Positions 1,462 through 52,110 of a stretch of 64,000 bases of DNA are shown piece by piece. Numbering within the stretch: position 1 is the first letter of the stretch; each line of letters opens with the position of its first letter. A model generated the notes under the pieces. That model searched no databases, was not told the origin of the DNA, and saw only the letters and a list, made by a program, of their open reading frames with translations. Position numbers and translations under genes: made by a program. The DNA is taken from IMG/VR virus record IMGVR_UViG_3300026430_000265, positions 2,771 to 66,770 of that record. The stretch is one strand, 5' to 3'. The DNA is from a virus.

Positions 1462-1923
1462 ATGATCTGCTACGTCATGCCCGATGGGAGTTATGGACGC
1501 AGCACACAGCCGCCACACGACGCCATTCCCATTGGTGACGACATATACAGGATGCTGGAGGACAACCCTGGCATGCTGGACATTGAAGTCACCGGTGTGA
1601 ATGTTCGGATCAGCCCATCGCTTATTTCCTACAAGGCAAAGGCGCTGGAGATTATCCGTACCGAAGTGGGCAAGCTGCTGCCGTCTGAGCAGCATCTGAA
1701 CCAACTGCACCGCAGCGTTGCTTGCGAGCAGTCCTGTTTCGATGAGGTCCTTGGCTGGTTAACGGTTGAGGACACGCGCAAGACGTTTGCGCAGCTTAAC
1801 GAACGGCACAACAAGCTGCGATTCATTCAACACGACAGCACCTCCATGGTGGGGCAAGCAACAGCCTGTGAACAGGTTGATACCATACTGGAGGCATTGT
1901 CGCATACACTAGGTGCACTATGA
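1462..1923 (+). CDS. Hypothetical protein, possible tail-fibre assembly chaperone
   Basis: 153 aa; AGGTGAG RBS; short beta N-terminus then helical C-terminus as in fibre-assembly chaperones; ATGA overlap with the next gene. Confidence 0.5.
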   Translation: MICYVMPDGSYGRSTQPPHDAIPIGDDIYRMLEDNPGMLDIEVTGVNVRISPSLISYKAKALEIIRTEVGKLLPSEQHLNQLHRSVACEQSCFDEVLGWLTVEDTRKTFAQLNERHNKLRFIQHDSTSMVGQATACEQVDTILEALSHTLGAL

Positions 1924-3329
1924 GTGTGAAAGGTGTTTCCGACTCTCCACTCCTTGGGAAGTCTATCCTAGGAGACCAATCCCGGGTGCCCATCGGTGCG
2001 CCTGTGATTACAAACCTCAGGGTGAAGAACTCGAAAGAGATTCAGGCCCTGATGACTGGCCAGACATTGACTGAGCCACAACTCAACCAGTTCGAGACGT
2101 TTGGGCAGGATGGCAGGGAAGCCTTCCGCAAAGAGTCCAACAGCATCGACTACCGTGATCGCACGCTGGAGAACGGGCGCCTTATCGAGGAGTGGAGCTA
2201 CGACCCACAAACGGGTTCGCTTGTCCTCGTGCGGAAGAACCAAGAAGAGTACCGCATCTTCAACTTCCTGCGCCAAGACGCGATGGGTCATGGTGCTACA
2301 GGTCCTCGTGGCGATCCGGGTAAAGATGGGAAGAACGGACGTCTCGGTCGTGATGGTGCTCAAGGTGCTACCGGTTGCGAAGGTGAGAAGGGTGATCCGG
2401 GTGAGACTGGTAACCCAGGCGTCGAAGGTAATCCCGGCATCATGGGCTTGCAAGGTCCAGACGGTTGTGAGGGTGCATCGGGCGATCGTGGTGTCGTGGG
2501 TCCACAGGGACGTAACGGGTTTGAAGGCGCTCGTGGCCTCACTGGACCAAGTTGCGATGAAGAGAACACTGGCGCTCAAGGTGCACAAGGTGCCAAGTTC
2601 GGTAAGGGTGTTGCCTTTGGCCTAGCCGCTGCCTCTGATCCAGAAGTCGCAATCATGGGCTTGGACGATGACGGTGTTGATGCAGTTGCGCCAACGTGTG
2701 GCTGGACTGGTAAGCTGTGCGGTGCAACTACTGCGCCAGCAACGCCTGCTCCTGATACATCAGCGCCAGCTAACCCATCGCCTCCACCTACTGCATCTGC
2801 GCGCATCAGCCTGTGTACGAGCTTTGGTAACCAGAGTCCGAAGAGTTCGTGTGGTGGTACCTCGACTGCGTGGTATGTTGCATGGGCCAACTTCGATGCA
2901 GGTGGCGGTGTACTGGGTCTCTCGGGACTTCCACTCGCACGGCAAAACACTGCATGGTGGCCAAACAGTGTCGTCATGTGTGGTACTCTGGCCGCTGGTG
3001 CAGCGTACACCTTCGAGTTGATTACTCCACCGGGCGTTGCCTCCACCTTGTTCCTGAACTGTGCGATCATCAGCCAGACGGACTACCCAGGTGGTACCAC
3101 GCGAGTCACGAAGACACTGGACAAACCCACTGAGGTTCGCCTGCGCTTCCTCAACAACGCAGCGCGCATCCCAACGTGGTGTGCCCTGAAAATCTACAAC
3201 GCCTCCACAGGCGAACTGCTGTACTTCACGGGTAAGAATGCCAAGAACGCCGGCCTCAAAGGTGAGTTTGCCTCATCCAAGACTGACGACAACTGGGCAG
3301 GCAACAGCTCCGTGCAGCAGTACCTATAA
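1920..3329 (+). CDS. Collagen-like fibre protein A with Cys-rich C-terminal beta domain
   Basis: 29 uninterrupted G-X-Y triplets (GATGPRGDP...GLTGPS), Pro/Ala linker, beta-rich C-terminal domain. Confidence 0.8.
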   Translation: MSVKGVSDSPLLGKSILGDQSRVPIGAPVITNLRVKNSKEIQALMTGQTLTEPQLNQFETFGQDGREAFRKESNSIDYRDRTLENGRLIEEWSYDPQTGSLVLVRKNQEEYRIFNFLRQDAMGHGATGPRGDPGKDGKNGRLGRDGAQGATGCEGEKGDPGETGNPGVEGNPGIMGLQGPDGCEGASGDRGVVGPQGRNGFEGARGLTGPSCDEENTGAQGAQGAKFGKGVAFGLAAASDPEVAIMGLDDDGVDAVAPTCGWTGKLCGATTAPATPAPDTSAPANPSPPPTASARISLCTSFGNQSPKSSCGGTSTAWYVAWANFDAGGGVLGLSGLPLARQNTAWWPNSVVMCGTLAAGAAYTFELITPPGVASTLFLNCAIISQTDYPGGTTRVTKTLDKPTEVRLRFLNNAARIPTWCALKIYNASTGELLYFTGKNAKNAGLKGEFASSKTDDNWAGNSSVQQYL

Positions 3330-3338
3330 GGATTCAAC

Positions 3339-4034
3339 ATGACAGGCTTGACTCGAATCCACAGTTCGTTGATCTATGCCCCGGGTGAATCAGACCAGAC
3401 CGAAGTAGTGGTCAGGGACGAACACCTTGAGGCCAGTGCGCCGCTTGAGTCGGATATCAGTGAAGTCTCCAGCGGCTACTACGATGCCCAGCTGGGTATC
3501 CTGACGCTCACCATGAGCAACGGTGATACCGTTCGTATCAATGGCTTTGCCACAGCGGGTAACATCCCTGCTGGTCCCACAGGCCCTCAGGGTTTGCCGG
3601 GTAAAGATGGCCAAGACGGCCGTGATGGTAAGGACGGTGAGAAAGGCGAAGAGGGTTGCCAAGGTCCAGCGGGGCCACAAGGCGCCACTGGTGCTACCGG
3701 CCCTGATGGTCGCGATGGCATGATGGGTCAGCAAGGCGTTCGTGGTTGCCCAGGTCCCAAGGGTGCACCGGGTGAACGCGGACCCACTGGCCCGCAAGGT
3801 CCAATCGGCCCCACTGGTCCAAGAGGTGAGCAAGGTCCTACGGGTAAGCCGGGTGCTCCTGGCCCTGCAGGTACCGTGAATATCATCGTCTCCACTACTG
3901 ACCCTGGTAACGTGGGTGCTGGCTGGCTCTGGGTTAACCCAAGCGCCACTGAAACTCCTGCATCGGGTGGCGGCGGTGGCGGCACTGTAACGCCTCCTGC
4001 GACTGACCCACCCATCGGCACTCCATGGCCATAA
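3339..4034 (+). CDS. Collagen-like fibre protein B
   Basis: About 34 G-X-Y triplets; shared YD-x3-G-x-L-x-L..I-x-GF pre-collagen motif; C-terminal IIVSTTDP...WLWVNP motif. Confidence 0.85.
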
Positions 4035-4046
4035 CAAGGTGACCTT

Positions 4047-4562
4047 ATGCTGACTCGCGTTCCACTCAAATTGCTCGATGCCAAAGGTCGCTCTGGTAGT
4101 GACGTGCGCTTCGATGGTAACAACGTCGTGGTGGAAGAGGATAGCCTCAACCAGAACGACTACGGCATCACGGCTGGTAACTACGACGCCACCTCTGGTA
4201 CCCTGACGCTCGTCCTGCGCAATGGTGAAAGCCTCCAGCTCTCTGGGTTCACCACTGTCAGCGACATGGGCGTTGGCCAAGCAGGCCCCACTGGCCCAGC
4301 AGGTCAAGATGGCCGTGATGGTCTCAATGGTACTGACGGTGAGAAGGGTGCCACTGGTTGCCAAGGCCCAGCTGGCCCTCCCGGTCGTCAAGGCCCTCGC
4401 GGCGAACAAGGCAACCCAGGGGCTACAGGCCCTAACGGTGCAACTGGACCCACTGGCCCTGATGGCAAGGATGGCGTCGTTCAAATCTGGATTCAGACCG
4501 CTGACCCAGTGCTGGATGCTGCCGTCCACGTTGTCCCTGGGGCACTGTGGGTCAAGCCATAA
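4047..4562 (+). CDS. Collagen-like fibre protein C
   Basis: About 23 G-X-Y triplets; same pre-collagen motif; ends IWIQTADP...ALWVKP. Confidence 0.85.
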
Positions 4563-4577
4563 GTTGGAGTTCTACCA

Positions 4578-7500
4578 ATGAGTAGACTAAGAATCAGGAA
4601 TGCGGCCAACACCAAGTGGTTGGATATCTGCCAGAGTGAATGGCGGGTGCGCAATCCAAGCAACACAGGCTGGACACGCATCACTCCTGCGCAGGGCATG
4701 AAGGTTCGCCATGGTGCTGAGACCTATTGGCTGGACATTGATTGCAAGGCGGAAGGCCTAGCCAGTTGTGACACTGAGGATGAGTACGGCGGCACACCGG
4801 ACGGTAAGGGTAGCAATGGTTCAGGTGGTGGTAACGGCTCCGGCGGTGGAACAGGTGGCAACGGAGGCAACGGAGGGGCGGGCGGTAACGGCACGGACCC
4901 TGGGTCTGGGTCGGGCGGAATAGGAGGCGGTTTGAACGGTCCTGGCAGCCCTTGGTACAATAATGGGGATAAAGGATCCGGCCAAGGCGGCTCTGGATGG
5001 CAGGAAGGAGCACCATATCCAGGTGGCTATGATCTGCCAGATAGCGATGGGGATGGAGCGGGCGACAAGGGCTCGTGTATCTACCGTCCCGGACTGGGTG
5101 TCTGTGAGGAGAAGGGTGTCCTCATTATCCGTCCGGACATGGACTGCGGTACGAAGATCGCCGGTGGGTTTGATTGCCCATTCGAGTGCCCAAGTGCTAT
5201 CAATGGTAGCGGTAAGGGTATCTGGGAGTTCTACCTGAACATGGGCAAGGAAGGCGGTGCGGTGCGTATGCCATGGATGGCGAACGCTGGTGCTGTTAGT
5301 GTCGATGTGTACTACCGCGGCAAGGTCATTGCGAGCACTGGTGGGCAGCGTACTGGCAAAGGCGTATTGCAGTTCGTGTTCACGCCGGTGAATAACGACC
5401 CACTGGTGTTTGTCCGGGTTAGGGCTACTAAGGCCAGCAAGTGGACGCTCCAGATGAAGTGCGTGGGTGACGACGATACGGACGGTGAAATCACTGATCC
5501 ACGTCCATGCCACGGTACGTTCGAGGTGAAGAAAGAAGGCGGGTTGGGAACGTTTGAGTTCTATCACGCCATGGGTGATAAGGCTGGCTTGGTAGACATA
5601 CACTACCAGATGTGGAACCAGCCGGATAAGCTCGAAGTATTCCAAGACGGACGGTTGCTCAAGTCTACTGGCGGATACGTGGCAGGCGAAGGCCATGTGA
5701 AGTTTGACTATTCGCCTACCGAGTCGCAGCTTGTCATGGTGCGCATCACTGCACGGGACCCTGGGACCTCGTGGATTTACCTGATCACCTGTCCGGGCGA
5801 GAAGGGTAGTGAAGATGATCCACGGCCGTGTTCGGATCAGAGCGCCGTGACGTCTGGTGGTGCTGGTGTTACTGACACCTATGTCGATATGGGTCCGAAT
5901 GCTGGTAAGGTGGGTGTGCGTTACCAGATGTACAACATCCCCGATAAGCTGGACGTCTATCAAGGCGGTACGTTGGTTGCGACGACTGGTGGGCCTGTTA
6001 CTGGCGATCACTGGCTGTACTTCAACTACAACCCCGCTGGTGGTCAGAAGATCCAGATTCGGGTAACTGGCAGCGGTAAGACCTCGTGGTCGTTCCTGCA
6101 TACGTGCCCGGGTGATGAGGATCCAAACATCAGCATCGACGATCCGATTGTCAAGGAAGGCAAGGAGGGTGAGACTGCCCAACTCTGCTGGACCGTGACT
6201 ATGGATAAGCCGCAGTCCATGCCTGTGACTGTCGATTACCAATCTGGTGGCGGTACTGCTAAGCCCTTCATCTGCCAAGGCCGGATTTTGGCGAACGACG
6301 AGTTCAACAACCCCTTTATCGCAGTCGCGGACTGTGGCGTTGGTCGTGCAGCATTCGATGGCGGGTTCCCCAAGTTCTACAACAATGCCTACAGGGCGCC
6401 GCAGGATGCACCTACTGGTCAGGCCGTATTCGACTCGTGGTGGCGGACGGCAGGCGACGAGTATTACTCGGACCCTACCACAATCCCTGCTGCATCGCAA
6501 GCTACTGCATGGCGGTTGTCGAGCGGGAACATCCAGTCGACCACGAACAGTTCCAAGATGATTTCGTTCTGTTCGCCGCTGTCGTACATGAGCTACACGT
6601 TTGAGGCCACGCTGTCGTCTGGCGAGGCGGATGACGATATGATCGGCTTGGTAGCTGCGTTCGCCCGTGTTGGTGCTGACAACTACCATCTGGTTGCATC
6701 GCGTGTACCCGGTGGCATGGGAGGTTATGGTAGTGGTAACTTCAATCTGACGCTGCTTGTCAACGGTGTACCTACTAAGGTGCTCGCGACGAAGACTTCT
6801 GGCGGCAACGGGAACTGGAATGGTCGTGGGCAGACCCGTGTGCGGGTTGAGCGTGACTGCAACATCATCACGATCTACTGCTCACCCTTTGGTTCGGTTG
6901 CACTGGACTCTGGCACCAAGATCGAAGTGGACCTGAGTGCAGATGCTGACCTGAGCGCATTCACAGGCCAGACCAGCTGGGGCTTCTGTGCCCAGTCGCA
7001 AGCAAACGCCACGTTCAGCTCCGTGTTCGTGTCCGGCATTGGTCTGCCACCTGCATTCACCTACCTGAAGAACTTGATCCAGTGGACTGCGCGCACCAAC
7101 AATCGCACAGGCAAGGTGTTGATTACCTGCGACAACGCGACTGGTGGGAACTACACGCTCGACAGTCAGCCCAACGGGTTCGGTATCAGCTTGCCGGGTA
7201 CTGTCACGGCTGCTGGCTTCACGCCTGTGATGAAAGACGTGTACGCGTGGAACTCTGTGGGTGCTATCCCACTGGCTGAGCTCCTGACGTATGACACCAT
7301 CATCTTCATGGGTTCGCGGGTGACGGCAACTGGTGTAGCGGCTGAAGGTATCCTGAAGGAGGGTTCGGTAGCCAACTTCGCCGAGTACGCTAAGCGCGGT
7401 GGTGGCCTTGTTGTCATCACTGACCACTACGTCTTCGAGTCTGGTGCCAACCAGTTGGCTAACCTGTTCGGGATGGAGTTCTACGGCTCAGTGGATCGTA

Positions 7501-39863: not shown

Positions 39864-41156
39864 TTACTCCAGATAGTGGGGAATCCAGCGTTCGTTGTGC
39901 CAGCCAACCACCTTGCCGTTGAACTCGCGTATGCACAGCGTTGCTGCGGTGCAAGTGGCGCCGCCTTCGTCAGGCACGACAAACATACCGATGATGAAGT
40001 CGTTGCGTCCATTGAGTTGATGCGCTGGGCAGAACTCTTGGTAGACACGGGTAGTGCCGTCGTACGGACCTTCCGACGTGTACGCTTCACCGGTTTGCGT
40101 GTGGATCGTGACGTTAGCCGACATGCGACCCATATTGGGCTTCGAGACATACGGCGCGTTCGTGTTGATGAACGGCGACGGCTCCATGTAGGTCTTGAGC
40201 AGTGGCAGGTCTGCGTACTGCGACAGGCCGCCAAACTTCATGACCTCGGTGATGTACGCCCAGATGCCTTTGTTCGATGCGAACCAGCGCCATGCAGGCT
40301 CGAAGAAGGTGACGTTCTGGCACCACTTGCCCCAATTGGAGAATACGCTCGGCGCAGCTTCGACCATTTCTTCCCACGGGTGCAGGATGAATACAGCGTC
40401 CAGGCGATAGTCGCCGAAGACGAATGGCTTGGACGGTTCCGAGTGATCGAAGTCCAGCTCGTTAATGTCCACGAAGAACACGTTCGGGTTGATCTGGCTC
40501 ATGATCTGCGCGATGGTTTCGCACGTCGCCATGTCCTCGAACGAGTCTTGATGGAAGACGACTGCGGAGTGCCCTGGGATTTGCCCAAGATGCCCGAACA
40601 GTTCGTCCATCAGCGGCCACAGGCTGTTGAGCTGGCATTCTTCGTCGCCGGTCACTTGCTTACACAGCAGCGTCTGGAGGTTCACCGACTCAAACAGCAT
40701 GGTCGGAGTGTCGCCGTTGAATTCGTAGATGCCAGTGACTTCGTTGGTCGCAGGATCGAATGCCGCGTCGAAGCGCCCGTAGATTGGTTGCTTGTGCGAA
40801 CTGCGCGACGTATAGGTCCAGCGCGCATAGTCCAGGAACTCAGGATGCTTGGCCAGAAGTTCGCTGCCCATGTAGCGCTCGATCACCGCACGGTTCTCTT
40901 TGAACAGCATACCCACTGCATCGTGGAGACAGGCGTAGGTGCGCTCGAAGATGGTTTCGATTTTGGCGCAGGCCGACTGCTGGAGGACGTAGAACGGCAT
41001 GTTGTGCGCGTGCTCCGTGGCGTACTGGAAGTATTCGCGCACGTCCTGTTTGAGTTCGTTGCTGTTTGCCTCGCGATAGAACGCCTGGGTCCACGGCAGC
41101 TCCTCGTCCATCAAGGTGTCGAGGTTCAGATTGATTGGGTGATTCTGAATACGCAT
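39864..41156 (-). CDS. Glutathionylspermidine synthase-like ATP-grasp protein (GSP_synth; YgiC/YjfC-like)
   Basis: YGRFD..IYEFNGDTPT.L.ES; EDMAT; LHPWEEM; EPAW..SNKG; YVSKP..GR..NV; YQEF..IIG motifs in family order. Confidence 0.9.
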   Translation of the reverse strand: MRIQNHPINLNLDTLMDEELPWTQAFYREANSNELKQDVREYFQYATEHAHNMPFYVLQQSACAKIETIFERTYACLHDAVGMLFKENRAVIERYMGSELLAKHPEFLDYARWTYTSRSSHKQPIYGRFDAAFDPATNEVTGIYEFNGDTPTMLFESVNLQTLLCKQVTGDEECQLNSLWPLMDELFGHLGQIPGHSAVVFHQDSFEDMATCETIAQIMSQINPNVFFVDINELDFDHSEPSKPFVFGDYRLDAVFILHPWEEMVEAAPSVFSNWGKWCQNVTFFEPAWRWFASNKGIWAYITEVMKFGGLSQYADLPLLKTYMEPSPFINTNAPYVSKPNMGRMSANVTIHTQTGEAYTSEGPYDGTTRVYQEFCPAHQLNGRNDFIIGMFVVPDEGGATCTAATLCIREFNGKVVGWHNERWIPHYLE

Positions 41157-43650: not shown

Positions 43651-45176
43651 TAGCGGTTCCTTTTGCGGCTTGCTTTCTGCTGTTTACGCTTTTCTTTGGC
43701 GCCGGGCTTGGATGGACGCGACTTTGGATTGGCAGCTGCCGCCTTCGCTTCGACACGTTGCTGGTGCTGCCACGCAAGCCCTTGCAGCTTGTCTTTGGTG
43801 CTCGGGTCTTCACCTGCAGGAGGTGGTAGCGCTCCAGTATCAATGTTCCAGATACCGGGACCAGCAGGACCTGGCTCACCGGCCCAGCTACGCACACCAC
43901 GAGTCACCGTGCCTGTCTTACCCAACCCTGCAGGGTACGAGTCCAGGAAGAACTTCGGCGGGTTGTTGCTGAATGAATCGAACAGCGCCTCGAACAGCGA
44001 CTCACCACTTTGTGGTTCAGCGTCTTTTGGCGGTGACATACCCTCTGCAAGGATGGCAAGGCGAGCCAGTGTCAAGCGCAGCGCTATGTTGGACTTGCCG
44101 CCCATTGCATTGCGCATGAACGTTTCGGCAATGCTCGGGCGTGGCGAGTGCGGCGTGGAGAAGCTGTAGAACATCCCAGGCTTGATGCCACCAGAGAGCA
44201 TTTCGGTCGCGCTAATCAGATGATCTGGAAGGTTCAGCTTCCCGAGACGCATTTCGTCAACTGGACACTCCGTCACAATGACAGTACGGCTAAACGGGTT
44301 CATGCCAATATCGCTGTCGCCGAACATGGCGCGAATACGCTCACCTTCTGCGATCTGATGCGGGTGTGGCTTAGGCCAAGTAGCAACCGGCGTGGTCCTG
44401 AACTCGAAGCCTTTGTTATTCGGAGGTGTTGGATTCGACGCACGCTCAATCCGCACGTTCTGACCCATCAGCGCTTCTGGCATGACGTTGAGCAAGTCGA
44501 GGAGCGGCGTTGGGCGTCTGACCTCGCGCTCCTGCTTTTTCTGCTTCAACTGCGAGGCGTAGTAATGTGCGATACCCAGTAGCCACGTATCCTGCAGGTA
44601 CGTTTCGTCCATGGCCAGCGCACTCTCGCCGGTCCAACCTTCGTAGTTGACGCACGACTTCTTCAGGCGTACCTCAGCGATTTCTTCAATCTCGCGCTCG
44701 GCTTCCTTGAGCACGTACTGGACGTCGATGGCTGGAGCGCCCTTGCCTTCTTCGTGACTGTTCCAGCGCGTCATGTAGCGCTCTGGTTGATCACGGTCTG
44801 GAATGAAGTAGCTGGCGTCGCTCCAGTCCTGTTCAGCCCACCAGTCAGTAGCCAGATGCGGAAGCAGCGCAACGAACGCTTCCTGCGTATTGTCGTAGTT
44901 CTTGAAGCACATGCCGAAGACCAGCTTGTTACCCTCAAGGTGCGTCTTGATCGGCTCGTCCCAGCTTGGTGCCTGTTTGTTGCCGTTGCTGAATGCCCCA
45001 GGAACGAAGCGATGGCGGTCGGCGAGGCACAGCAGATGGAAAGCGTGCAGGCGTTTGAAGTGCTCAGGTACAGGCAGCATGTGCCAGTAGTCTTCGCGCT
45101 CGACGATCTGCTTAACCACGTCTACAAGTTCGGGCTTGATGGTTGCTTCGCCACGCAGGTAGTTGTAAGTTCCCAC
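43650..45176 (-). CDS. Hypothetical protein with low-complexity basic C-terminus
   Basis: 508 aa; AAGGAG RBS; ends KRKQQKASRKRNR. Confidence 0.75.
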   Translation of the reverse strand: MGTYNYLRGEATIKPELVDVVKQIVEREDYWHMLPVPEHFKRLHAFHLLCLADRHRFVPGAFSNGNKQAPSWDEPIKTHLEGNKLVFGMCFKNYDNTQEAFVALLPHLATDWWAEQDWSDASYFIPDRDQPERYMTRWNSHEEGKGAPAIDVQYVLKEAEREIEEIAEVRLKKSCVNYEGWTGESALAMDETYLQDTWLLGIAHYYASQLKQKKQEREVRRPTPLLDLLNVMPEALMGQNVRIERASNPTPPNNKGFEFRTTPVATWPKPHPHQIAEGERIRAMFGDSDIGMNPFSRTVIVTECPVDEMRLGKLNLPDHLISATEMLSGGIKPGMFYSFSTPHSPRPSIAETFMRNAMGGKSNIALRLTLARLAILAEGMSPPKDAEPQSGESLFEALFDSFSNNPPKFFLDSYPAGLGKTGTVTRGVRSWAGEPGPAGPGIWNIDTGALPPPAGEDPSTKDKLQGLAWQHQQRVEAKAAAANPKSRPSKPGAKEKRKQQKASRKRNR

Positions 45177-45186
45177 TTGTCTCTCC

Positions 45187-46056
45187 TTATTTGAAGCTGT
45201 AGTCCCATTGAAGTGACGGTTCCACTACCGCCGACACGTATGCAAGGGTTTGTTCTTGGGTGAAGATTTCAGCCAGTGCACCGTTGATGCCAGTGACGTT
45301 CGCACCCTCGTAAGGGCTCTCGGTTTCCGCAGTTACTGTCACCTTGGCTTGCTCGACAGCGAATGCGTTGGCTTGCATCACCAGCAGGTACGGTGCGTAC
45401 AGGGTGAGTTCCTTGTACGGTACCAGGGCAATCGTACCAAGACCGTGTGCGCGCAGTTGCACCTTGTGAGTTTCAACGCGACGGTCCGTGCGACGGAAGA
45501 CTTCCCAGCCGCCGAAGAAGTCGAGCACCTTGGGCACGCTGTCAAACTCAAACACCTCGTCACCGAACAGCACTTCGATTTCACCGTTCAGGTCAGCAGG
45601 CGAGTAGCGCAGGAAACGAATCGACGCGATCACTGTCTCCACGCCGATGAAGCGCACGTCCACGCGCGGGATGTTGCTGGCATGGTCACCGAAGCCGTCG
45701 ATGGTCATTTCGACTTCTGCAGGCTCGAAGACGTCCGACTCCCGTAGGTTCTCGACGAACTGGTTGATTTCCTGACGCTGGTGCGATTGCGTCTTGCGGA
45801 CCGCAGCGTTGGCTTGCACCATGCGCTCAAACCAGGAGTCGAAGTTCTGGCGCGATGCCAGTTTGCTTTGCGCACCTACACCTACCACCAGCACTGGAGT
45901 GCCAGTCTTCTGTTTGAAGGTCTTGCCGAGCAGCACCTCAAAGCGGATGTACGAGCCCTTCTTGTACGCGACTTGCTTGTCGCCGAACACGCCTTCCTCA
46001 AACTCTATGTCGGGAAAGCGCTCTTGCAAGTAGGCTAGCTGTTCTTCAAAAGTCAT
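45187..46056 (-). CDS. Hypothetical protein
   Basis: 289 aa; AAGGA RBS. Confidence 0.75.
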   Translation of the reverse strand: MTFEEQLAYLQERFPDIEFEEGVFGDKQVAYKKGSYIRFEVLLGKTFKQKTGTPVLVVGVGAQSKLASRQNFDSWFERMVQANAAVRKTQSHQRQEINQFVENLRESDVFEPAEVEMTIDGFGDHASNIPRVDVRFIGVETVIASIRFLRYSPADLNGEIEVLFGDEVFEFDSVPKVLDFFGGWEVFRRTDRRVETHKVQLRAHGLGTIALVPYKELTLYAPYLLVMQANAFAVEQAKVTVTAETESPYEGANVTGINGALAEIFTQEQTLAYVSAVVEPSLQWDYSFK

Positions 46057-46840
46057 TGGTTCCTTCTCCTACGTACACGGTATGTTCAGTGTCGCTGTTC
46101 AGGAACTTGGCGATCACCGTTTCTTTGCTGTCCACTCGTCCAGCGACAACGACCTTGTGGGCCTTGAAGTTGCGGTACCCTCGGGCCGTCAGGTAGATGA
46201 ACGAGCTGGCGAAGTGCGAGTCTGCAAGGAAGCACACGCGGTTGCCATCGTACTGTGCATCCACTTCACGTGGTGCTGGACGCGATTCGTCCGTGAGCAG
46301 CTTGAGCAGCTCCTCCAGCGTGTGAAACTCAGTGCCGAAGTTGTTGCAGAAGAACGTGGCGCACTCAGCACCTTGACCGCACGTGCGACCCAGATCGGAC
46401 GAAAACAGGCCAACGTCGACACGGAACAGCGCACGCCCATCGAAGGTGAAGTCCAGCACAATGTCGTTGCCTGGATTGCGCTTGTGGTCGATCTTGGCTT
46501 TCACCTTTTCGTACCCTGGGATTGCGCGAACAGCTTCCAGATAGGTACGCAGCATGCCCTCACGTCGAGTGCCTGGGTTGTGATCCGACGGGATACGGAG
46601 CTGTGCTTCGATGATACGCATTGCAGTGAGCGACGCCAGGATGTACGTCGGGATGCGGTGATGCCGCACCATGTTGCCCAGTTGCAACGTCACACCACCA
46701 CGGCCGTGCGCATTCGCCTTGATCGTCACGTTGGAGTCGTTGAAGTAGATGAAGTCCTCGTCAACGCCCAGCTGGACAGAATTCGTGTAGTGCTTGCGCA
46801 GCATTACTAACAACGAGGTGAGTGGGTTTTTCTTGGCCAT
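46046..46840 (-). CDS. Hypothetical protein
   Basis: 264 aa; AAGGA RBS. Confidence 0.75.
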   Translation of the reverse strand: MAKKNPLTSLLVMLRKHYTNSVQLGVDEDFIYFNDSNVTIKANAHGRGGVTLQLGNMVRHHRIPTYILASLTAMRIIEAQLRIPSDHNPGTRREGMLRTYLEAVRAIPGYEKVKAKIDHKRNPGNDIVLDFTFDGRALFRVDVGLFSSDLGRTCGQGAECATFFCNNFGTEFHTLEELLKLLTDESRPAPREVDAQYDGNRVCFLADSHFASSFIYLTARGYRNFKAHKVVVAGRVDSKETVIAKFLNSDTEHTVYVGEGTNDF

Positions 46841-46845
46841 GGTGC

Positions 46846-47271
46846 TTATCCTTCTACCTTGAAGCCGTCTTCGATCATGCGGAGCTTCGCGCCCGGCATC
46901 TTTTGCAATTCTGGGTACCCGACGTGTAGCACTGTCTCTCGGAACGGGATTGCCATCGGGTCACCTTTGATGTGGCGGAGTTTCATAAACTTGTACATGC
47001 CCCAGCGACCGTGCGCCACCAAGCGACCATCACCGACACGTACTGGGCTGAATGCAGCGAGTGGCAGGAAGAAGTGCCGTAAAACCTCTTTGCCATAATC
47101 GAGGTACGACAGGCTCAGATAGCGAGCGTTCGCCTGCGTGATACCCATACGGTGCAGGCTCAGTTCACCAGCAGTCGAGCACACCAGCATCCATGTTGTG
47201 GCGAGCATGTACGCGCGGCAGAACAGAAAGGCCACGATACACCAAATAATCTCAGCTGAGGAAACGTTCAT
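46846..47271 (-). CDS. Hypothetical membrane protein
   Basis: 141 aa; hydrophobic N-terminus IIWCIVAFLFC. Confidence 0.65.
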   Translation of the reverse strand: MNVSSAEIIWCIVAFLFCRAYMLATTWMLVCSTAGELSLHRMGITQANARYLSLSYLDYGKEVLRHFFLPLAAFSPVRVGDGRLVAHGRWGMYKFMKLRHIKGDPMAIPFRETVLHVGYPELQKMPGAKLRMIEDGFKVEG

Positions 47272-47581
47272 GGTATTTCACCTGCGATGACTGGGCGTAT
47301 TCGCTTTGGTTCTGGAGAATGGCAGTATCAATCGGTCGCGATTTCTTGTTGAGTGATTCGCTCTCGCCGTAGCACTCAAGCCCTGCCGAGCCGAAGCGCA
47401 CGAATCCAGCACTGACAACATCTTCCACGTCGATGCGCATACCGTGGCGTTGGCGACCCATACGGTAGACGGTCTCGAAGAAGTTCTTGTGGGTAATGAC
47501 GCACGGGAACAACAGGATCAGTTCGTAATCCTGTTCAAGGTCCCGATTGGTAGCGCTCACCACGATGTACTTCATCTGCAT
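47252..47581 (-). CDS. Hypothetical protein
   Basis: AAGGA RBS before ATG 47581; KYIV..LFP..H..SAGF..CYGES.SL..SR..D resembles a small phage protein family. Confidence 0.7.
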   Translation of the reverse strand: MQMKYIVVSATNRDLEQDYELILLFPCVITHKNFFETVYRMGRQRHGMRIDVEDVVSAGFVRFGSAGLECYGESESLNKKSRPIDTAILQNQSEYAQSSQVKYHERFLS

Positions 47582-47600
47582 GTTCGAGTTCCTTAAGAGG

Positions 47601-47632
47601 AAAGGCCCAATGACAACCGTCACTGAGCCTTT
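47601..47632 (-). terminator. 14-bp hairpin, probable terminator downstream of amrZ
   Basis: Minus strand AAAGGCTCAGTGAC-GGTT-GTCATTGGGCCTTT with two G.U pairs, so it folds only on the minus strand; weak U tract. Confidence 0.55.
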
Positions 47633-47730
47633 TTGTTTGCACGTTTGGCGCGCCGACGCTGTTTACGCTGGCGTCGTTCCTCTAGCCGTATACGCATGTA
47701 CACGGCCAGCATATTGATGCGGTCAATCAC
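47620..47730 (-). CDS. 36-aa arginine-rich peptide (absent from the ORF track)
   Basis: GTG 47730 overlaps the amrZ stop; [36 protein letters not shown]; fills the gap between amrZ and the hairpin exactly. Confidence 0.5.
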
Positions 47731-48034
47731 GCTCGACTGCACCCTCAGGTGCGATCAGTGCCACGAGCGCGCTCTGCTTGCGTGGGTCCAGAGCACGGAA
47801 GGACTTGAGCAGTTCGCGCTCATGCAGGCTCAGCTCTGGGCTATCCATGCGCAGTTGCGGCTCGTCGCCCAGTGCACCTTCCTGAACGAGACTTTGCTCC
47901 AGGCGTGCGATGATTTCGCTGTTCATGCTGCGGTGATGATTGCGTGCCACTTCGGCGATACGCTCACGCATACCATCAGGAAGGCGAACGACGAATTTGT
48001 CAGCGGTGCGAGACGAATAGACGGAACGGTTCAA
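47723..48034 (-). CDS. amrZ: AmrZ (AlgZ) homolog, Arc-family ribbon-helix-helix transcription regulator
   Basis: TTG start after a GGGGAG RBS; [75 protein letters not shown] closely matches Pseudomonas AmrZ as recalled. Confidence 0.93.
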
Positions 48035-48038
48035 GGTG

Positions 48039-48719
48039 TTACTCCCCAGTGGTATTGCGGCTACGTTTGATGGATGCGTCAATCTCGGACGCGAAAGACA
48101 AAGCGGTTGCAGTGACCTGTTCAAGGCTCTGCGGCATTTCGTACAGTCTATCGCTTGGCGTGCTGATAAACAACCCCAGCGCCGTGTCGTAGACCTTTGG
48201 TGGTATCACGGCAGTGCGCTCACCTCGAATCACTGAGGACCCCATGCCTCGCCAGATTTCAAAGTGGGACAGCACGAAGTCACTGAACTCGACAGGCGAG
48301 GCCTCAGCGTCTTGCAGTGTCTTCAATGCCTTAAACAACTTGGCACCAGCCTTCGCAGGCTTGTTGGGTTTGCACGCGATACGGGTGACACCCTCGTACT
48401 CGACTTCCTGATACGACTCGACGTTCAACAGGCCGTGGCACACGTCGATTGGCGAATCGTAGATCAGGCCTTCGCAGATCAGACCAGACAGTGGATGCCA
48501 CGCGCTCCAGACGTCGTAGGCCTTGTACTGCTTGGCAAACTCTTTCAGCGTGACCGTCAGCGTCTCTTTGCGCTGTACGACGGCCTCACGGAACTGCTTC
48601 GAGAGCTTAGGCCAGTCTCGACCGCGGTACAGCCAGTAGTGGGTGGGTTGCGTTTGGTCTACGGGTAACGTTGCGATAATGTCTTCCAGCAACGCCAAGT
48701 AGGACGGTGGTACTTTCAT
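48039..48719 (-). CDS. Hypothetical protein
   Basis: 226 aa; GGAG RBS. Confidence 0.7.
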
Positions 48720-48756
48720 GTTCGAGCTCCAGAACTTCCTGTCTATCTACTTCACA

Positions 48757-49149
48757 CTATTCCATTTCTTCGTCGCTACCACGACGTTTCTTGGCTTCGT
48801 CTGTGTTGGGCAGGGTAAACTTGCGCTCACCCTTTTCGCGTCGGCGATATGCTTCGCTGTACACTTGTGGCGAGTACGCGCCCGGTGTGACGTGCTCCAG
48901 CATCACCTCGATAGCTTGCGCACCGTCTAAACCTTGCTCCATCTGACTGAGGTTGAACGACATGGTGCGGATTTCATCCTCGTCCACGTAGTTGTCCAAC
49001 CCTTCGAACCGTTCCTTCACGCGCGTTTCCAGCGATTGTTCAGTCAAGCTCTCCAACGCTTGGCGTGCGAGACTAAGCCCGTACGTGTCAGCGTTGCGGA
49101 GAGCCTTCTTGATAATCGCCATCTGTGCGTCAGACAAGATGACGGCCAT
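48757..49149 (-). CDS. Hypothetical protein
   Basis: 130 aa; GAGGAG RBS. Confidence 0.7.
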   Translation of the reverse strand: MAVILSDAQMAIIKKALRNADTYGLSLARQALESLTEQSLETRVKERFEGLDNYVDEDEIRTMSFNLSQMEQGLDGAQAIEVMLEHVTPGAYSPQVYSEAYRRREKGERKFTLPNTDEAKKRRGSDEEME

Positions 49150-49152
49150 GGG

Positions 49153-49704
49153 TTACTCCTCGTCTTTGACGTGCGGCATGCCAGCCATCTGCATATCGTT
49201 GCAGGCTGGGCAGTGATACATACCGATAGGTTCGCCGCCGAGGAACTCAGGGTGCTCGGTGCAGTCGAAGTCGGCGTTGTTGTACAGGCGAATCCAGAGC
49301 ACGCGCAGCACACCGCCTTCAACATACTCCTCGCCACCTTTCTTGTACTTCGGGTTGTCCGAGTACAGGTAGCGCTGTGCCAGATGCACGTTTGCAGCTT
49401 CGAGCGTTGGCACCCAGGCCTTTGCCCAGTCACCGATGGCTTTCTTGCTGGCTTCGACGTTCTCAGGCGTGCCGAACAACTGGAAGACCATGTCGAACAC
49501 AGGCTTCTCGGCAACGTCGCCCTGCAGCTCCTGAATCACAATGTCGCCAGTCTTGTAACGCAGTGGCTGGATGGCGTTCTTGGAGTTCACCAAGTCAACG
49601 CTCATGTGCTCGGTCTGCGGGAACACCGGAATGTCCAGCTCGCCAAACTTCGCTTCGGTGTACTTGCCTGCGAACACTGCCAGTTTGTCTACTTGCTCAG
49701 TCAT
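49153..49704 (-). CDS. Hypothetical protein with C-terminal Cys/His (Zn-finger-like) motif
   Basis: AGGAG RBS before ATG 49704; DFDCTEHPE..G..YHCPACNDMQMAGMPH. Confidence 0.75.
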   Translation of the reverse strand: MTEQVDKLAVFAGKYTEAKFGELDIPVFPQTEHMSVDLVNSKNAIQPLRYKTGDIVIQELQGDVAEKPVFDMVFQLFGTPENVEASKKAIGDWAKAWVPTLEAANVHLAQRYLYSDNPKYKKGGEEYVEGGVLRVLWIRLYNNADFDCTEHPEFLGGEPIGMYHCPACNDMQMAGMPHVKDEE

Positions 49705-50203
49705 GGTTATCTCCTGCGATATGTGGAACGCCACTGATTTGCATTGCACCGCACACTGGGCACAGGTACGGTCTGGTTTCTTCACCGAGTCGCATTTCGG
49801 GATGCTCGGTACAATCGAAGTCGATGTTGAAGTAGAAGCGGACGATGTAGAACACCGTGGTGGTATATCGGCTGTGCACCTCACGAACGCACAGGTGCTT
49901 GTCGCTGTCGTGCAGGCTTTCGCCCACCGACTTCACGAACGAGCCGATTGCTTCACGCGCTTCCTTGACGTGTGCAGCATCACCCTCGATGCGAAACACA
50001 ATGTCGGTGATCGGGCTAGTCTTGGTCTGCGCGAAGATGCCCAGATGCAGGACGTCGTCCTCGTCAATGCGAATTGGCACCATGTTGCTTTTACCGACAG
50101 ACAGCGCAACGGCAATCTGTGGCAGTGCCGGGAGCATCGCACCCGCGAACAACCCTTCGGGGTGGAGCTGGTCGTTGAACGGGTATACTTTATCTTGGCT
50201 CAT
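49697..50203 (-). CDS. Paralog of 49153-49704 with the same Cys/His motif
   Basis: DFDCTEHPE..YLCPVCGAMQISGVPH. Confidence 0.75.
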   Translation of the reverse strand: MSQDKVYPFNDQLHPEGLFAGAMLPALPQIAVALSVGKSNMVPIRIDEDDVLHLGIFAQTKTSPITDIVFRIEGDAAHVKEAREAIGSFVKSVGESLHDSDKHLCVREVHSRYTTTVFYIVRFYFNIDFDCTEHPEMRLGEETRPYLCPVCGAMQISGVPHIAGDNHD

Positions 50204-50496
50204 TTTAGCCTCACAGGCCTCACCATGACAATGGCGTAGGCATACTGATCGTCGAAGTGGCGATGGATTTCAGTGTCGAATCCCTTCACGGAGTTGGAGA
50301 AGTCGATTGCGGATGCAACGGCCAACTCTTCGTCATCCTTGGAGCGGAAGACAATCATGTAGGTGTTTTCGCTTTCCTCGCGGGCTGCAACTCGCACGCC
50401 AGCAGGGACTACACCCAAGCTCACTTCGCGATCAAACATCAGTACGGCGTCTGGAGCAATCGCGCTGAAACCCAGGGTAGATGCGTTCTGGTTCAT
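50200..50496 (-). CDS. Hypothetical protein
   Basis: GAGGT RBS before ATG 50496; 98 aa. Confidence 0.65.
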   Translation of the reverse strand: MNQNASTLGFSAIAPDAVLMFDREVSLGVVPAGVRVAAREESENTYMIVFRSKDDEELAVASAIDFSNSVKGFDTEIHRHFDDQYAYAIVMVRPVRLK

Positions 50497-50497
50497 G

Positions 50498-50722
50498 TTA
50501 TACCTCAGTAAGTAGAATGTCTGGAAAGTCCATTTCGGTTTTGTACACCTCACCGTTGACCCGAAACACAACGGTGGTCAACTGGGCGTGCAGTTCTTGG
50601 TTGAGGTCGACCAGTATCAGTTGATCCCCTTTCTGCACAACCAGCATCTTGTTATCAGCCAGCGAGTGCAGTACAACGGGGCCATCGGTTAACTCAACAA
50701 CGCGATCAATCAGGTGACGCAT
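50498..50722 (-). CDS. Hypothetical protein
   Basis: 74 aa; GGAGGGG RBS. Confidence 0.7.
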   Translation of the reverse strand: MRHLIDRVVELTDGPVVLHSLADNKMLVVQKGDQLILVDLNQELHAQLTTVVFRVNGEVYKTEMDFPDILLTEV

Positions 50723-50756
50723 TTGCTAACCCCTCCGTGTTCTGCCCGTCACTGGG

Positions 50757-51272
50757 CTATTGGTCTCCGAGAATCTCTTTTGGATGATCGAAGCGTATGG
50801 TGTACGCCTGTTCGTTGGACCACAGTACAGCTTCAAACTCAGGCTTACTACCTCTGGGCAGTCGCGTGATATTGCGGATGGTGAATTCGTCCAGCGCATG
50901 GAGCGAGCAGCGTTGTTTGCTGTGCTCATGCGTGACTTGGGTCACGGTGATACCGTGCATTACCGTCTTGCTTAGCATTCGTTGCATCAGTAGCAACCAC
51001 GGTACCAAGCGATGATGCTGGGCTACATACGTCTGGCGTCCATGCTCTGGACGGAAGATGTATTGATGTATCTCAGGCATATCGGCATAGTCGATAGACC
51101 CGAGCACGTGGTTGGCAACACGACCGAAGAAGGTTGCGTCTTCAGGCCACTGACGAACTTTAGCGATACCATCGTTCACGGATTTGACGGCAAAGACGGT
51201 GCCTGCCTTGAACGTGACTTCGTTGCCGCTGTCTGGCCAAGGTGTGCAGTCTTTCAAGCAAAGAATGAACAT
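50757..51272 (-). CDS. Hypothetical protein
   Basis: 171 aa; AGGAG RBS. Confidence 0.7.
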   Translation of the reverse strand: MFILCLKDCTPWPDSGNEVTFKAGTVFAVKSVNDGIAKVRQWPEDATFFGRVANHVLGSIDYADMPEIHQYIFRPEHGRQTYVAQHHRLVPWLLLMQRMLSKTVMHGITVTQVTHEHSKQRCSLHALDEFTIRNITRLPRGSKPEFEAVLWSNEQAYTIRFDHPKEILGDQ

Positions 51273-51281
51273 GGTTTCTCC

Positions 51282-51554
51282 TTACAATCCGCCTACGGAC
51301 TTGGGCACGTCGATGCGTGCTTCACCGCTGAACCCGTTGGCGATCAGCGACACGTGGTAGCAGTTGCGACCCGGAACGAAGCGGATGCTCGGCCGACCCG
51401 GCAGGCGATACTTACGCAGCGCTGCACGGATAGTCTTCTCCGCTTCTTCGGTACCGCAGTTAAGCAGGACGTCCTTCGACGCTGCCAGTACATCGTTGAG
51501 TTGCGAGCGCGTTGGGATGGGCTTCCGAAATGCCCGAAGCAAGGTACGCACCAT
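51282..51554 (-). CDS. Hypothetical protein
   Basis: 90 aa; AAGGA RBS. Confidence 0.65.
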   Translation of the reverse strand: MVRTLLRAFRKPIPTRSQLNDVLAASKDVLLNCGTEEAEKTIRAALRKYRLPGRPSIRFVPGRNCYHVSLIANGFSGEARIDVPKSVGGL

Positions 51555-51555
51555 T

Positions 51556-52110
51556 TCAGGTTTTCCTTAGTGTCTTGAGTTCAACCACTTCCGTTCTGAA
51601 CTCGCCAATGATCCCGTCCCAGTAGAGACGTTCGACTTGTTTGTGGTAGTAATAGCCGTACAGGTCACCAACGACAGCGCGTGCAAACAGCTTGTACACG
51701 CACAGGTCGAATGACTTGGCGGCAATGTTCAGGTGCTTTGTGGACGTGACGTAACGTTGCTTAACCACTTTCCCGCCTTCGAAGACAGGAACAGCGACAC
51801 GACACGCAGCACCAAAACGAAAGCCAACGACGCGGTAAGTGCCAGTGCCAACAGAATACATGATACCGAAAGTATCAGCATGTGCTCGCAGCGCCGATAG
51901 GATGGAGTCGTAATGCGGAACGTCATAACAGTGCTCAACGAATTGGGAAGTGGTGAGCGTCTCCTTCACCTGCTTCCCTGTGTCTTTGTTTTTCTTCCAG
52001 ATCAGGGCGTGCTTTGCGTCACGCTCACACCGAACTAGCTCGCCAGGTGTGAAATCCCCGATGGCTTTCCGAATGACGACGACTCGGTTGTGGAAGTCAG
52101 GTTGGCGCAT
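51556..52110 (-). CDS. Hypothetical protein
   Basis: 184 aa; GAGGT RBS. Confidence 0.7.
   Translation of the reverse strand: MRQPDFHNRVVVIRKAIGDFTPGELVRCERDAKHALIWKKNKDTGKQVKETLTTSQFVEHCYDVPHYDSILSALRAHADTFGIMYSVGTGTYRVVGFRFGAACRVAVPVFEGGKVVKQRYVTSTKHLNIAAKSFDLCVYKLFARAVVGDLYGYYYHKQVERLYWDGIIGEFRTEVVELKTLRKT

Follow-up and report, generated by a model that had tools for sequence, protein, structure and literature searches.

The analyzed stretch of viral DNA (64,000 nt, positions 2,771 to 66,770 of the IMG/VR record IMGVR_UViG_3300026430_000265; hereafter the window) carries a gene for a phage-encoded AmrZ homolog. Alignment with chromosomal AmrZ shows its product, P0001, to keep both the Arc-type RHH domain, with all published DNA contacts, and the two-helix C-terminal domain. 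The gene lies among phage genes and not at a chromosomal Pseudomonas locus, which makes it a mobile copy rather than the host gene. Its parts, in window coordinates, are as follows.

47723-48034, minus strand: the amrZ-like coding sequence, 103 codons plus a TGA stop, with a TTG start at 48034 (protein P0001)
48042-48047, minus strand: Shine-Dalgarno sequence GGGGAG, 7-nt spacer to the TTG, within the 3' end of the preceding gene
47864-48013, minus strand: Arc-type RHH domain of the coding sequence, from the PF03869 and 3QOQ matches
47744-47851, minus strand: AmrZ-type C-terminal domain, residues 62-97, from the alignment to host AmrZ; two predicted helices

The TTG start at 48034 is confirmed by a related phage contig (L166), which has an ATG at the homologous start codon with an identical GGGGAG ahead of it. 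Independent gene callers (on JGI and Logan contigs) again delivered a 103-aa amrZ-like product. A scan for sigma-70 promoters near the gene returned none that was convincing (1 found versus 4.6 expected).

An earlier note on this DNA, made from the letters only, had proposed a phage-borne, full-length AmrZ homolog with both domains, and the database comparisons bear this out. The Pfam Arc model (PF03869) matches residues 8-57 of P0001 with E=1.5e-26, the crystal construct of P. aeruginosa AmrZ (PDB 3QOQ) matches with E=2e-25 (48 of the 53 aligned residues identical), and a search among 5.8 billion proteins found 1402 relatives. Chromosomal Pseudomonas AmrZ proteins (104-109 aa) are 73-87% identical to P0001 at 92-100% query coverage (E ~1e-41 to 1e-43). 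Since the alignment to host AmrZ reaches through the C-terminal domain, the label "full-length" is correct, and the 13-residue C-terminal oligomerization stretch singled out in the note is indeed retained. The companion remark that the divergence lies in the C-terminal helix holds too. With AmrZ from 81 host genomes as the comparison set (80 species representatives plus the P. aeruginosa sequence), divergence is concentrated at residues 77-88 and in the tail (96-102); minor changes occur as well at residues 2-5, in the linker (59-63) and at I50V, which is the single difference between the RHH domain of P0001 and the consensus of the 81 hosts. The N-terminal arm, residues 1-16 of AmrZ, is diverged in P0001 and 2-5 residues shorter (MNRSV versus MRPLKQAI or MKQAI in hosts), and its Y-S-S-R-T-A-D stretch is identical to that of host AmrZ.

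Base recognition by AmrZ has been ascribed to K18, V20 and R22, with R14 required at algD, R28 and N43 assisting binding and H39-E51 linking two AmrZ dimers (Pryor et al. 2012, PMC3325190). All of these contacts are identical in P0001, where R9, K13, V15, R17, R23, H34, N38 and E46 correspond to AmrZ R14, K18, V20, R22, R28, H39, N43 and E51, respectively. By homology, we consider it rather probable that P0001 is a functional AmrZ ortholog which binds host AmrZ operators during infection and reprograms the host AmrZ regulon. In such a mechanism, P0001, as a dimer of dimers, would occupy these operators, whose GGC half-sites are joined by an A/T-rich linker, and a phage-controlled AmrZ-like state would be imposed on the host regulon in the course of infection. 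The note had proposed that the phage may in this way suppress defense or remodel surface receptors. The target regulon would comprise flagella (via fleQ), pili, exopolysaccharides and diguanylate cyclases and, where present, the type I-F cas genes, as for the ortholog in Pseudomonas phage PaBG.

Repression of type I-F CRISPR-Cas by phage AmrZ homologs, that of PaBG included, was mentioned in the earlier note, in agreement with the work of Borges et al. (bioRxiv 10.1101/673095). That study described AmrZ homologs on 14 Pseudomonas mobile elements and found that five of the six tested complemented delta-amrZ, that amrZ_PaBG, amrZ_phi3 and amrZ_JBD68 reduced Csy expression in P. aeruginosa, and that the PaBG homolog represses type I-F CRISPR-Cas. 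Because tested mobile copies complemented the mutant and the PaBG copy repressed Csy, mimicry of host AmrZ is the documented mode of action. The same work later appeared in Nat Microbiol (2020).

[quoted passage not shown] In this domain P0001 has K77, S78, P84, K86, S88, P96 and E97 where 80-81 of the 81 hosts have Q, R, H, Q, N, H and D. Six of the seven substitutions are common to P0005 (encoded on L166, an 85% identical relative) and four to P0006. On the other hand, L75, L76, F79, R80, L82, R85, Q87, A89, L90 and I94 are invariant across the phage and host sequences, the hydrophobic core positions of the domain (L75, L76, F79, L82, L90 and I94) being kept, and the acidic tail of P0001 differs from that of host AmrZ. 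Pfam has no model for the AmrZ C-terminal domain. AlphaFold2 predicts C-terminal helices at residues 70-80 and 84-94 (pLDDT ~83) within a monomer model whose mean pLDDT of 65 is too low for fold searches. With seven host-invariant or near-invariant positions changed, the activity of P0001 could differ from that of host AmrZ; the phage-specific surface substitutions probably retune oligomerization or partner contacts and do not abolish them.

As its RHH interface hardly differs from that of the host, P0001 could plausibly form mixed oligomers with host AmrZ. A predicted complex built from two C-terminal domains of the host and two of the phage lends them weak support: its ipSAE is 0.40 versus 0.02 for the best control, at a partner pLDDT of 62 and with at least 72% contact agreement between runs, on a scale whose mark 51 of 78 solved complexes attained, against 2 of 108 mismatches, and on which passes at or below 0.60 are more often wrong than right. 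We do not take this complex as evidence of binding. Such mixing forms part of the idea that P0001 is a dominant-negative or orthogonal AmrZ, which would form mixed dimers or tetramers, or compete for sites, without making the activator or repressor contacts of the host protein, and would thus disable the host regulator. The seven changed positions, six of them common to L166 with the hydrophobic core kept, would suit this idea, as would the almost identical RHH dimer interface and, weakly, the modeled mixed fold. We nevertheless regard it as quite unlikely, since the weak score of the mixed fold is also what would be expected for close homologs, and no sign of lost function is apparent in P0001. 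Moreover, the PaBG copy repressed Csy with an entirely different C-terminus and belongs to the tested set in which five of six complemented delta-amrZ.

The IMG/VR virus record to which the window belongs measures 137,684 bp and is ~52% complete (CheckV). P0001 recurs unchanged on 63 contigs, the longest of 266,016 bp, and with a single residue altered on another 64; phage genes border the gene on both sides on more than 100 independent contigs. Proteins of the window match tail sheath, fiber and virion PHROGs, and a virion protein of 564 aa shares 62% identity with its counterpart in Pseudomonas phage PaBG (Baikalvirus, 258 kb). These matches support the assignment of the window to a PaBG-like jumbo phage, ~265 kb in size and known from soil libraries. 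The amrZ-like gene has a conserved place in the small-gene block of such phages. Gene order around amrZ is collinear with PaBG, where P0001 corresponds to PaBG_00302 (annotated "alginate and motility regulator"), and the same order recurs in a 277.6-kb IMG/VR contig, L025. The flanking proteins are only 22-48% identical among the window phage, PaBG and L025, the RHH domain of P0001 is 79% identical to that of PaBG_00302, and P0001 as a whole is 67% identical to the L025 copy. A megablast search with 4 kb around the amrZ-like gene against 50,697 phage records found nothing. The flanking genes are these.

48039-48719, minus strand: preceding gene, 226 aa, homolog of PaBG_00304; its stop lies 4 nt before amrZ; 30% identity to the PaBG gene and 92% to that of L166
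47252-47581, minus strand: following gene, 109 aa as called, homolog of PaBG_00300; phrog_3988; 37% identity to PaBG; called as a gene on L164 and L166

The 226-aa gene has no Pfam or PHROG family match. A glutathionylspermidine-synthase-like gene (39864-41156, minus strand; phrog_6215, E=1e-97) is found in the same minus-strand block as amrZ, and its homologs occur within ~6 kb of an AmrZ-like gene in the jumbo-phage contigs L031, L036, L058 and L077.

Between the phage gene and host amrZ genes nucleotide identity is 70-75% overall. Over the RHH segment the best host match reaches 87%, with a third-position identity of 0.70 that compares with a host-to-host median of 0.68, and GC3 of the phage gene is 0.62 versus 0.66-0.75 in the neighboring phage genes. 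Recent capture from a host or gene conversion was considered as an origin and is ruled out by the overall identity, by third positions that are as diverged as between hosts, and by the phage-like GC3. In the comparison with L166, dN/dS is 0.13 for the whole gene, 0.11 for the RHH and 0.14 for the C-terminal domain (dS 0.76), similar to the 0.07-0.22 of the neighboring genes; the low values of both domains show that selection maintains each of them in the phage. By these measures the amrZ-like gene is old in the phage lineage and under purifying selection. The same data bear on whether it is a neutral passenger or an assembly artefact containing host DNA. Such mistakes do occur among viral records, as the AmrZ match in "phage Y12" comes from the P. 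aeruginosa chromosome, where phnCD neighbors amrZ, and about 20 IMG/VR "viral" records have host amrZ at their very edge. For the window copy, however, this explanation is very improbable given the phage genes on either side of it on the more than 100 independent contigs, its phage-like composition, the synteny with PaBG and the dN/dS of 0.13.

The phage DNA was also searched for operators of the amrZ1 type (GGC, a five-base A/T-rich linker of the form W4N, and GCC), the general AmrZ motif being degenerate. There is no enrichment in the window, where the one match (1.45 expected) is inside a structural gene. Three matches of this type were found in the 137-kb record, which is about half of the phage genome, and the two that were examined are both within coding sequence; one of the three is the exact amrZ1 core, GGCAAAACGCC, inside a 396-aa ORF. 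With no sign of intergenic amrZ1-type operators in the available phage DNA, the result fits host rather than phage targets, although with a degenerate motif and about half of the genome covered, phage targets may exist as well. The result bears on the proposal that P0001 is mainly a transcription regulator of the phage itself, as Arc and Mnt are in P22, timing early or middle genes with its likeness to host AmrZ merely inherited. An AmrZ-like RHH gene does occupy one syntenic position in three PaBG-like lineages whose neighboring proteins are so dissimilar, and Pseudomonas phages, jumbo and temperate alike, commonly carry RHH genes whose C-terminal domains are of several unrelated kinds, suggestive of a regulatory module in general use among phages; the departure of the phage C-terminal domain from the host-invariant sequence points the same way. 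Yet we hold this proposal to be unlikely. The RHH domain departs from the host consensus by a single residue even though its synonymous sites are scrambled, a constraint that phage-only operators would not require; amrZ1-type operators are not enriched in the available phage DNA and the examined matches fall in coding sequence; and the PaBG copy acts on host genes. Action on the host regulon remains our preferred reading of P0001.

Of a more tentative nature, and on balance doubtful, is a stepwise domestication at this one syntenic locus, leading from the near-host full-length copy of L025 through the re-engineered tetramerization surface of P0001 to the chimera with a foreign C-terminus in PaBG. 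The fixed substitutions would then make P0001 orthogonal to, or a poison for, host AmrZ tetramers. If this were true, the phage would control AmrZ operators independently of host AmrZ.

The earlier note had further argued for a non-aeruginosa host from residues in both domains. The signature itself is real: the residues are LPEGMREQ..RSHH and GALQDN in P. aeruginosa, and another RHH-side signature together with GALGDE in non-aeruginosa species, as in P0001. The host inference drawn from it is weak. PaBG, which infects PAO1 and was isolated on it, carries the same 17-residue RHH-side signature as P0001, so this part is no diagnosis of the present host, and the GALGDE part is not comparable with PaBG, whose C-terminus is unrelated. 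The phylogeny that the note had suggested (an AmrZ tree of 47 distinct sequences) places the phage copy within an unresolved polytomy of non-aeruginosa sequences. A better clue, still an indirect one, is provided by the samples: the window stretch is present in 20 runs labeled soil metagenome, 14 of them metatranscriptomic, and such a soil origin favors an environmental, non-aeruginosa Pseudomonas host. In three of these small soil RNA libraries (X7, X17 and X19; examined for window positions 44000-52000) the phage appears on contigs of 146-237 kb at high word depth and with no differences from the window, and carry-over of DNA into these libraries is possible. All 20 runs carry separate study codes. 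The soil RNA-library contigs suggest either that the samples form a single large related series in which the phage bloomed, or that the RNA libraries contain carried-over or contaminating DNA.

The spacer that follows amrZ on the same strand is conserved and predicted to be structured. It contains the following elements.

47582-47722, minus strand: conserved structured spacer, 141 nt; predicted RNA fold of -71.6 kcal/mol, z=-5.5
47682-47709, minus strand: 12-bp hairpin in the spacer; one U-A to A-U double change in L166
47602-47631, minus strand: 13-bp hairpin in the spacer, from the RNA fold
47620-47712, minus strand: uncalled Arg/Lys-rich micro-ORF, 30 codons from an ATG at 47712, stop at 47620

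The last 81 nt of the spacer are identical in L166, and its conservation is above that of coding DNA. The micro-ORF differs from its L166 counterpart by 9 synonymous and 5 non-synonymous changes, and it is absent from PaBG and L025.

To place P0001 among other phage AmrZ-like proteins, the C-termini of the best 80 IMG/VR loci, together with the window copy and L166, were clustered into the following groups.

Host-type C-terminus: 28 loci including the window copy and L166, 21 of them right at the end of records of 8.7-50 kb (most ~12-15 kb)
Short coiled-coil C-terminus: 20 loci, contigs of ~9-45 kb, most ~30 kb
Beta-rich C-terminus, group 1: 16 loci, mostly jumbo phages
Beta-rich C-terminus, group 2: 4 loci, jumbo phages of the Noxifer type
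Other C-termini: several small groups and singletons, PaBG being a singleton

The 21 record-edge loci with a host-type C-terminus are probably host flank, and genuine phage loci of this type are thus few among the best 80 IMG/VR loci, the window copy and L166, namely the P0001-P0006 lineage, L025, L026 and L028 and, more remotely, L041 and L056. Some apparent relatives were rejected. The sole near full-length, high-identity tblastn match among the 50,697 phage records (80%), in "Pseudomonas phage Y12" (L003, OQ572413.1, unverified), is P. aeruginosa chromosome. Positions 1720-5690 of that record, which is contaminated or chimeric, hold phosphonate ABC transporter genes (phnCD), a 108-aa host amrZ and a short-chain dehydrogenase at high GC. 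More distant phage matches that cover most of the length are those in MT837871 (54% over residues 7-90) and Edwardsiella phage GF-2 (46% over 12-87). Loci L004-L024, in which records of 8.7-50 kb end with a host-type amrZ, were likewise rejected as phage cargo and read as host flank. The sole one examined of these, L004, encodes a major capsid protein of the P2 family along with a Mob_Pre relaxase, and the set may represent small capsid-encoding satellites or integrative elements inserted beside amrZ in several Pseudomonas species. In many jumbo Pseudomonas phages, Noxifer included, a near-host AmrZ arm and RHH are fused to beta-rich C-terminal domains (L027, L029-L040, L042, L043, L045, L047 and L053-L055; mostly contigs of 240-283 kb). 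These beta-rich C-termini form two sequence groups, many of them ending in K-P-hydrophobic, and have no Pfam family; the C-terminus of PaBG is a third, singleton type.

Phage mimicry of AmrZ is already published, with the positional ortholog in PaBG tested, as a route into a regulatory weak point of the host through CRISPR-Cas repression and the switches of motility and biofilm formation. P0001 extends this route to an abundant soil jumbo phage and leaves the general picture unchanged, being unusual only in that it retains the assembly domain of the host protein in modified form. It amounts to a natural experiment in which the host sequence has been preserved in the DNA-binding domain and the oligomerization domain has changed where the whole genus stays fixed. 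A comparison of P0001 with the PaBG chimera could reveal which parts of AmrZ phages need, as well as the role of the invariant C-terminal surface of host AmrZ.

Among known systems, chromosomal AmrZ (AlgZ; PA3385, 3QOQ) is like P0001 in its N-terminal arm, Arc-type RHH and two-helix C-terminal domain, and P0001 is set apart from it by Q77K, R78S, H84P, Q86K, N88S, H96P and D97E, the shorter arm, the acidic tail and the location in a jumbo phage. The proteins amrZ_PaBG (PaBG_00302), amrZ_phi3 and amrZ_JBD68 are likewise phage-borne AmrZ homologs with conserved DNA contacts. In PaBG_00302 (138 aa), however, the C-terminal 80 residues are unrelated, whereas P0001 retains the host-type C-terminal domain, and the phi3/JBD68 type (~81-86 aa) has a short coiled-coil tail unlike that of P0001. 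Gp53 of P. aeruginosa phage PhiPA1019 is an early AmrZ-like RHH protein of 126 aa. It binds host promoters, those of fleQ, pslA and amrZ, represses ftsZ as well and remodels the physiology of the host, and it is reported to be functionally distinct from AmrZ (Commun Biol 2026, PMC13650114). By description, Gp53 and P0001 are both AmrZ-like RHH proteins of phages. Arc and Mnt of P22, which control phage immunity genes at phage operators, belong to the same RHH fold family, as reflected in the match of P0001 to the engineered pArc (PDB 1U9P, E=1.6e-6). Like AmrZ, Mnt tetramerizes via its C-terminal domain (Pryor 2012, PMC3325190). Whereas Arc and Mnt act on operators of the phage, P0001 is a near-copy of a global regulator of the host, and the available phage DNA showed no matching operators.
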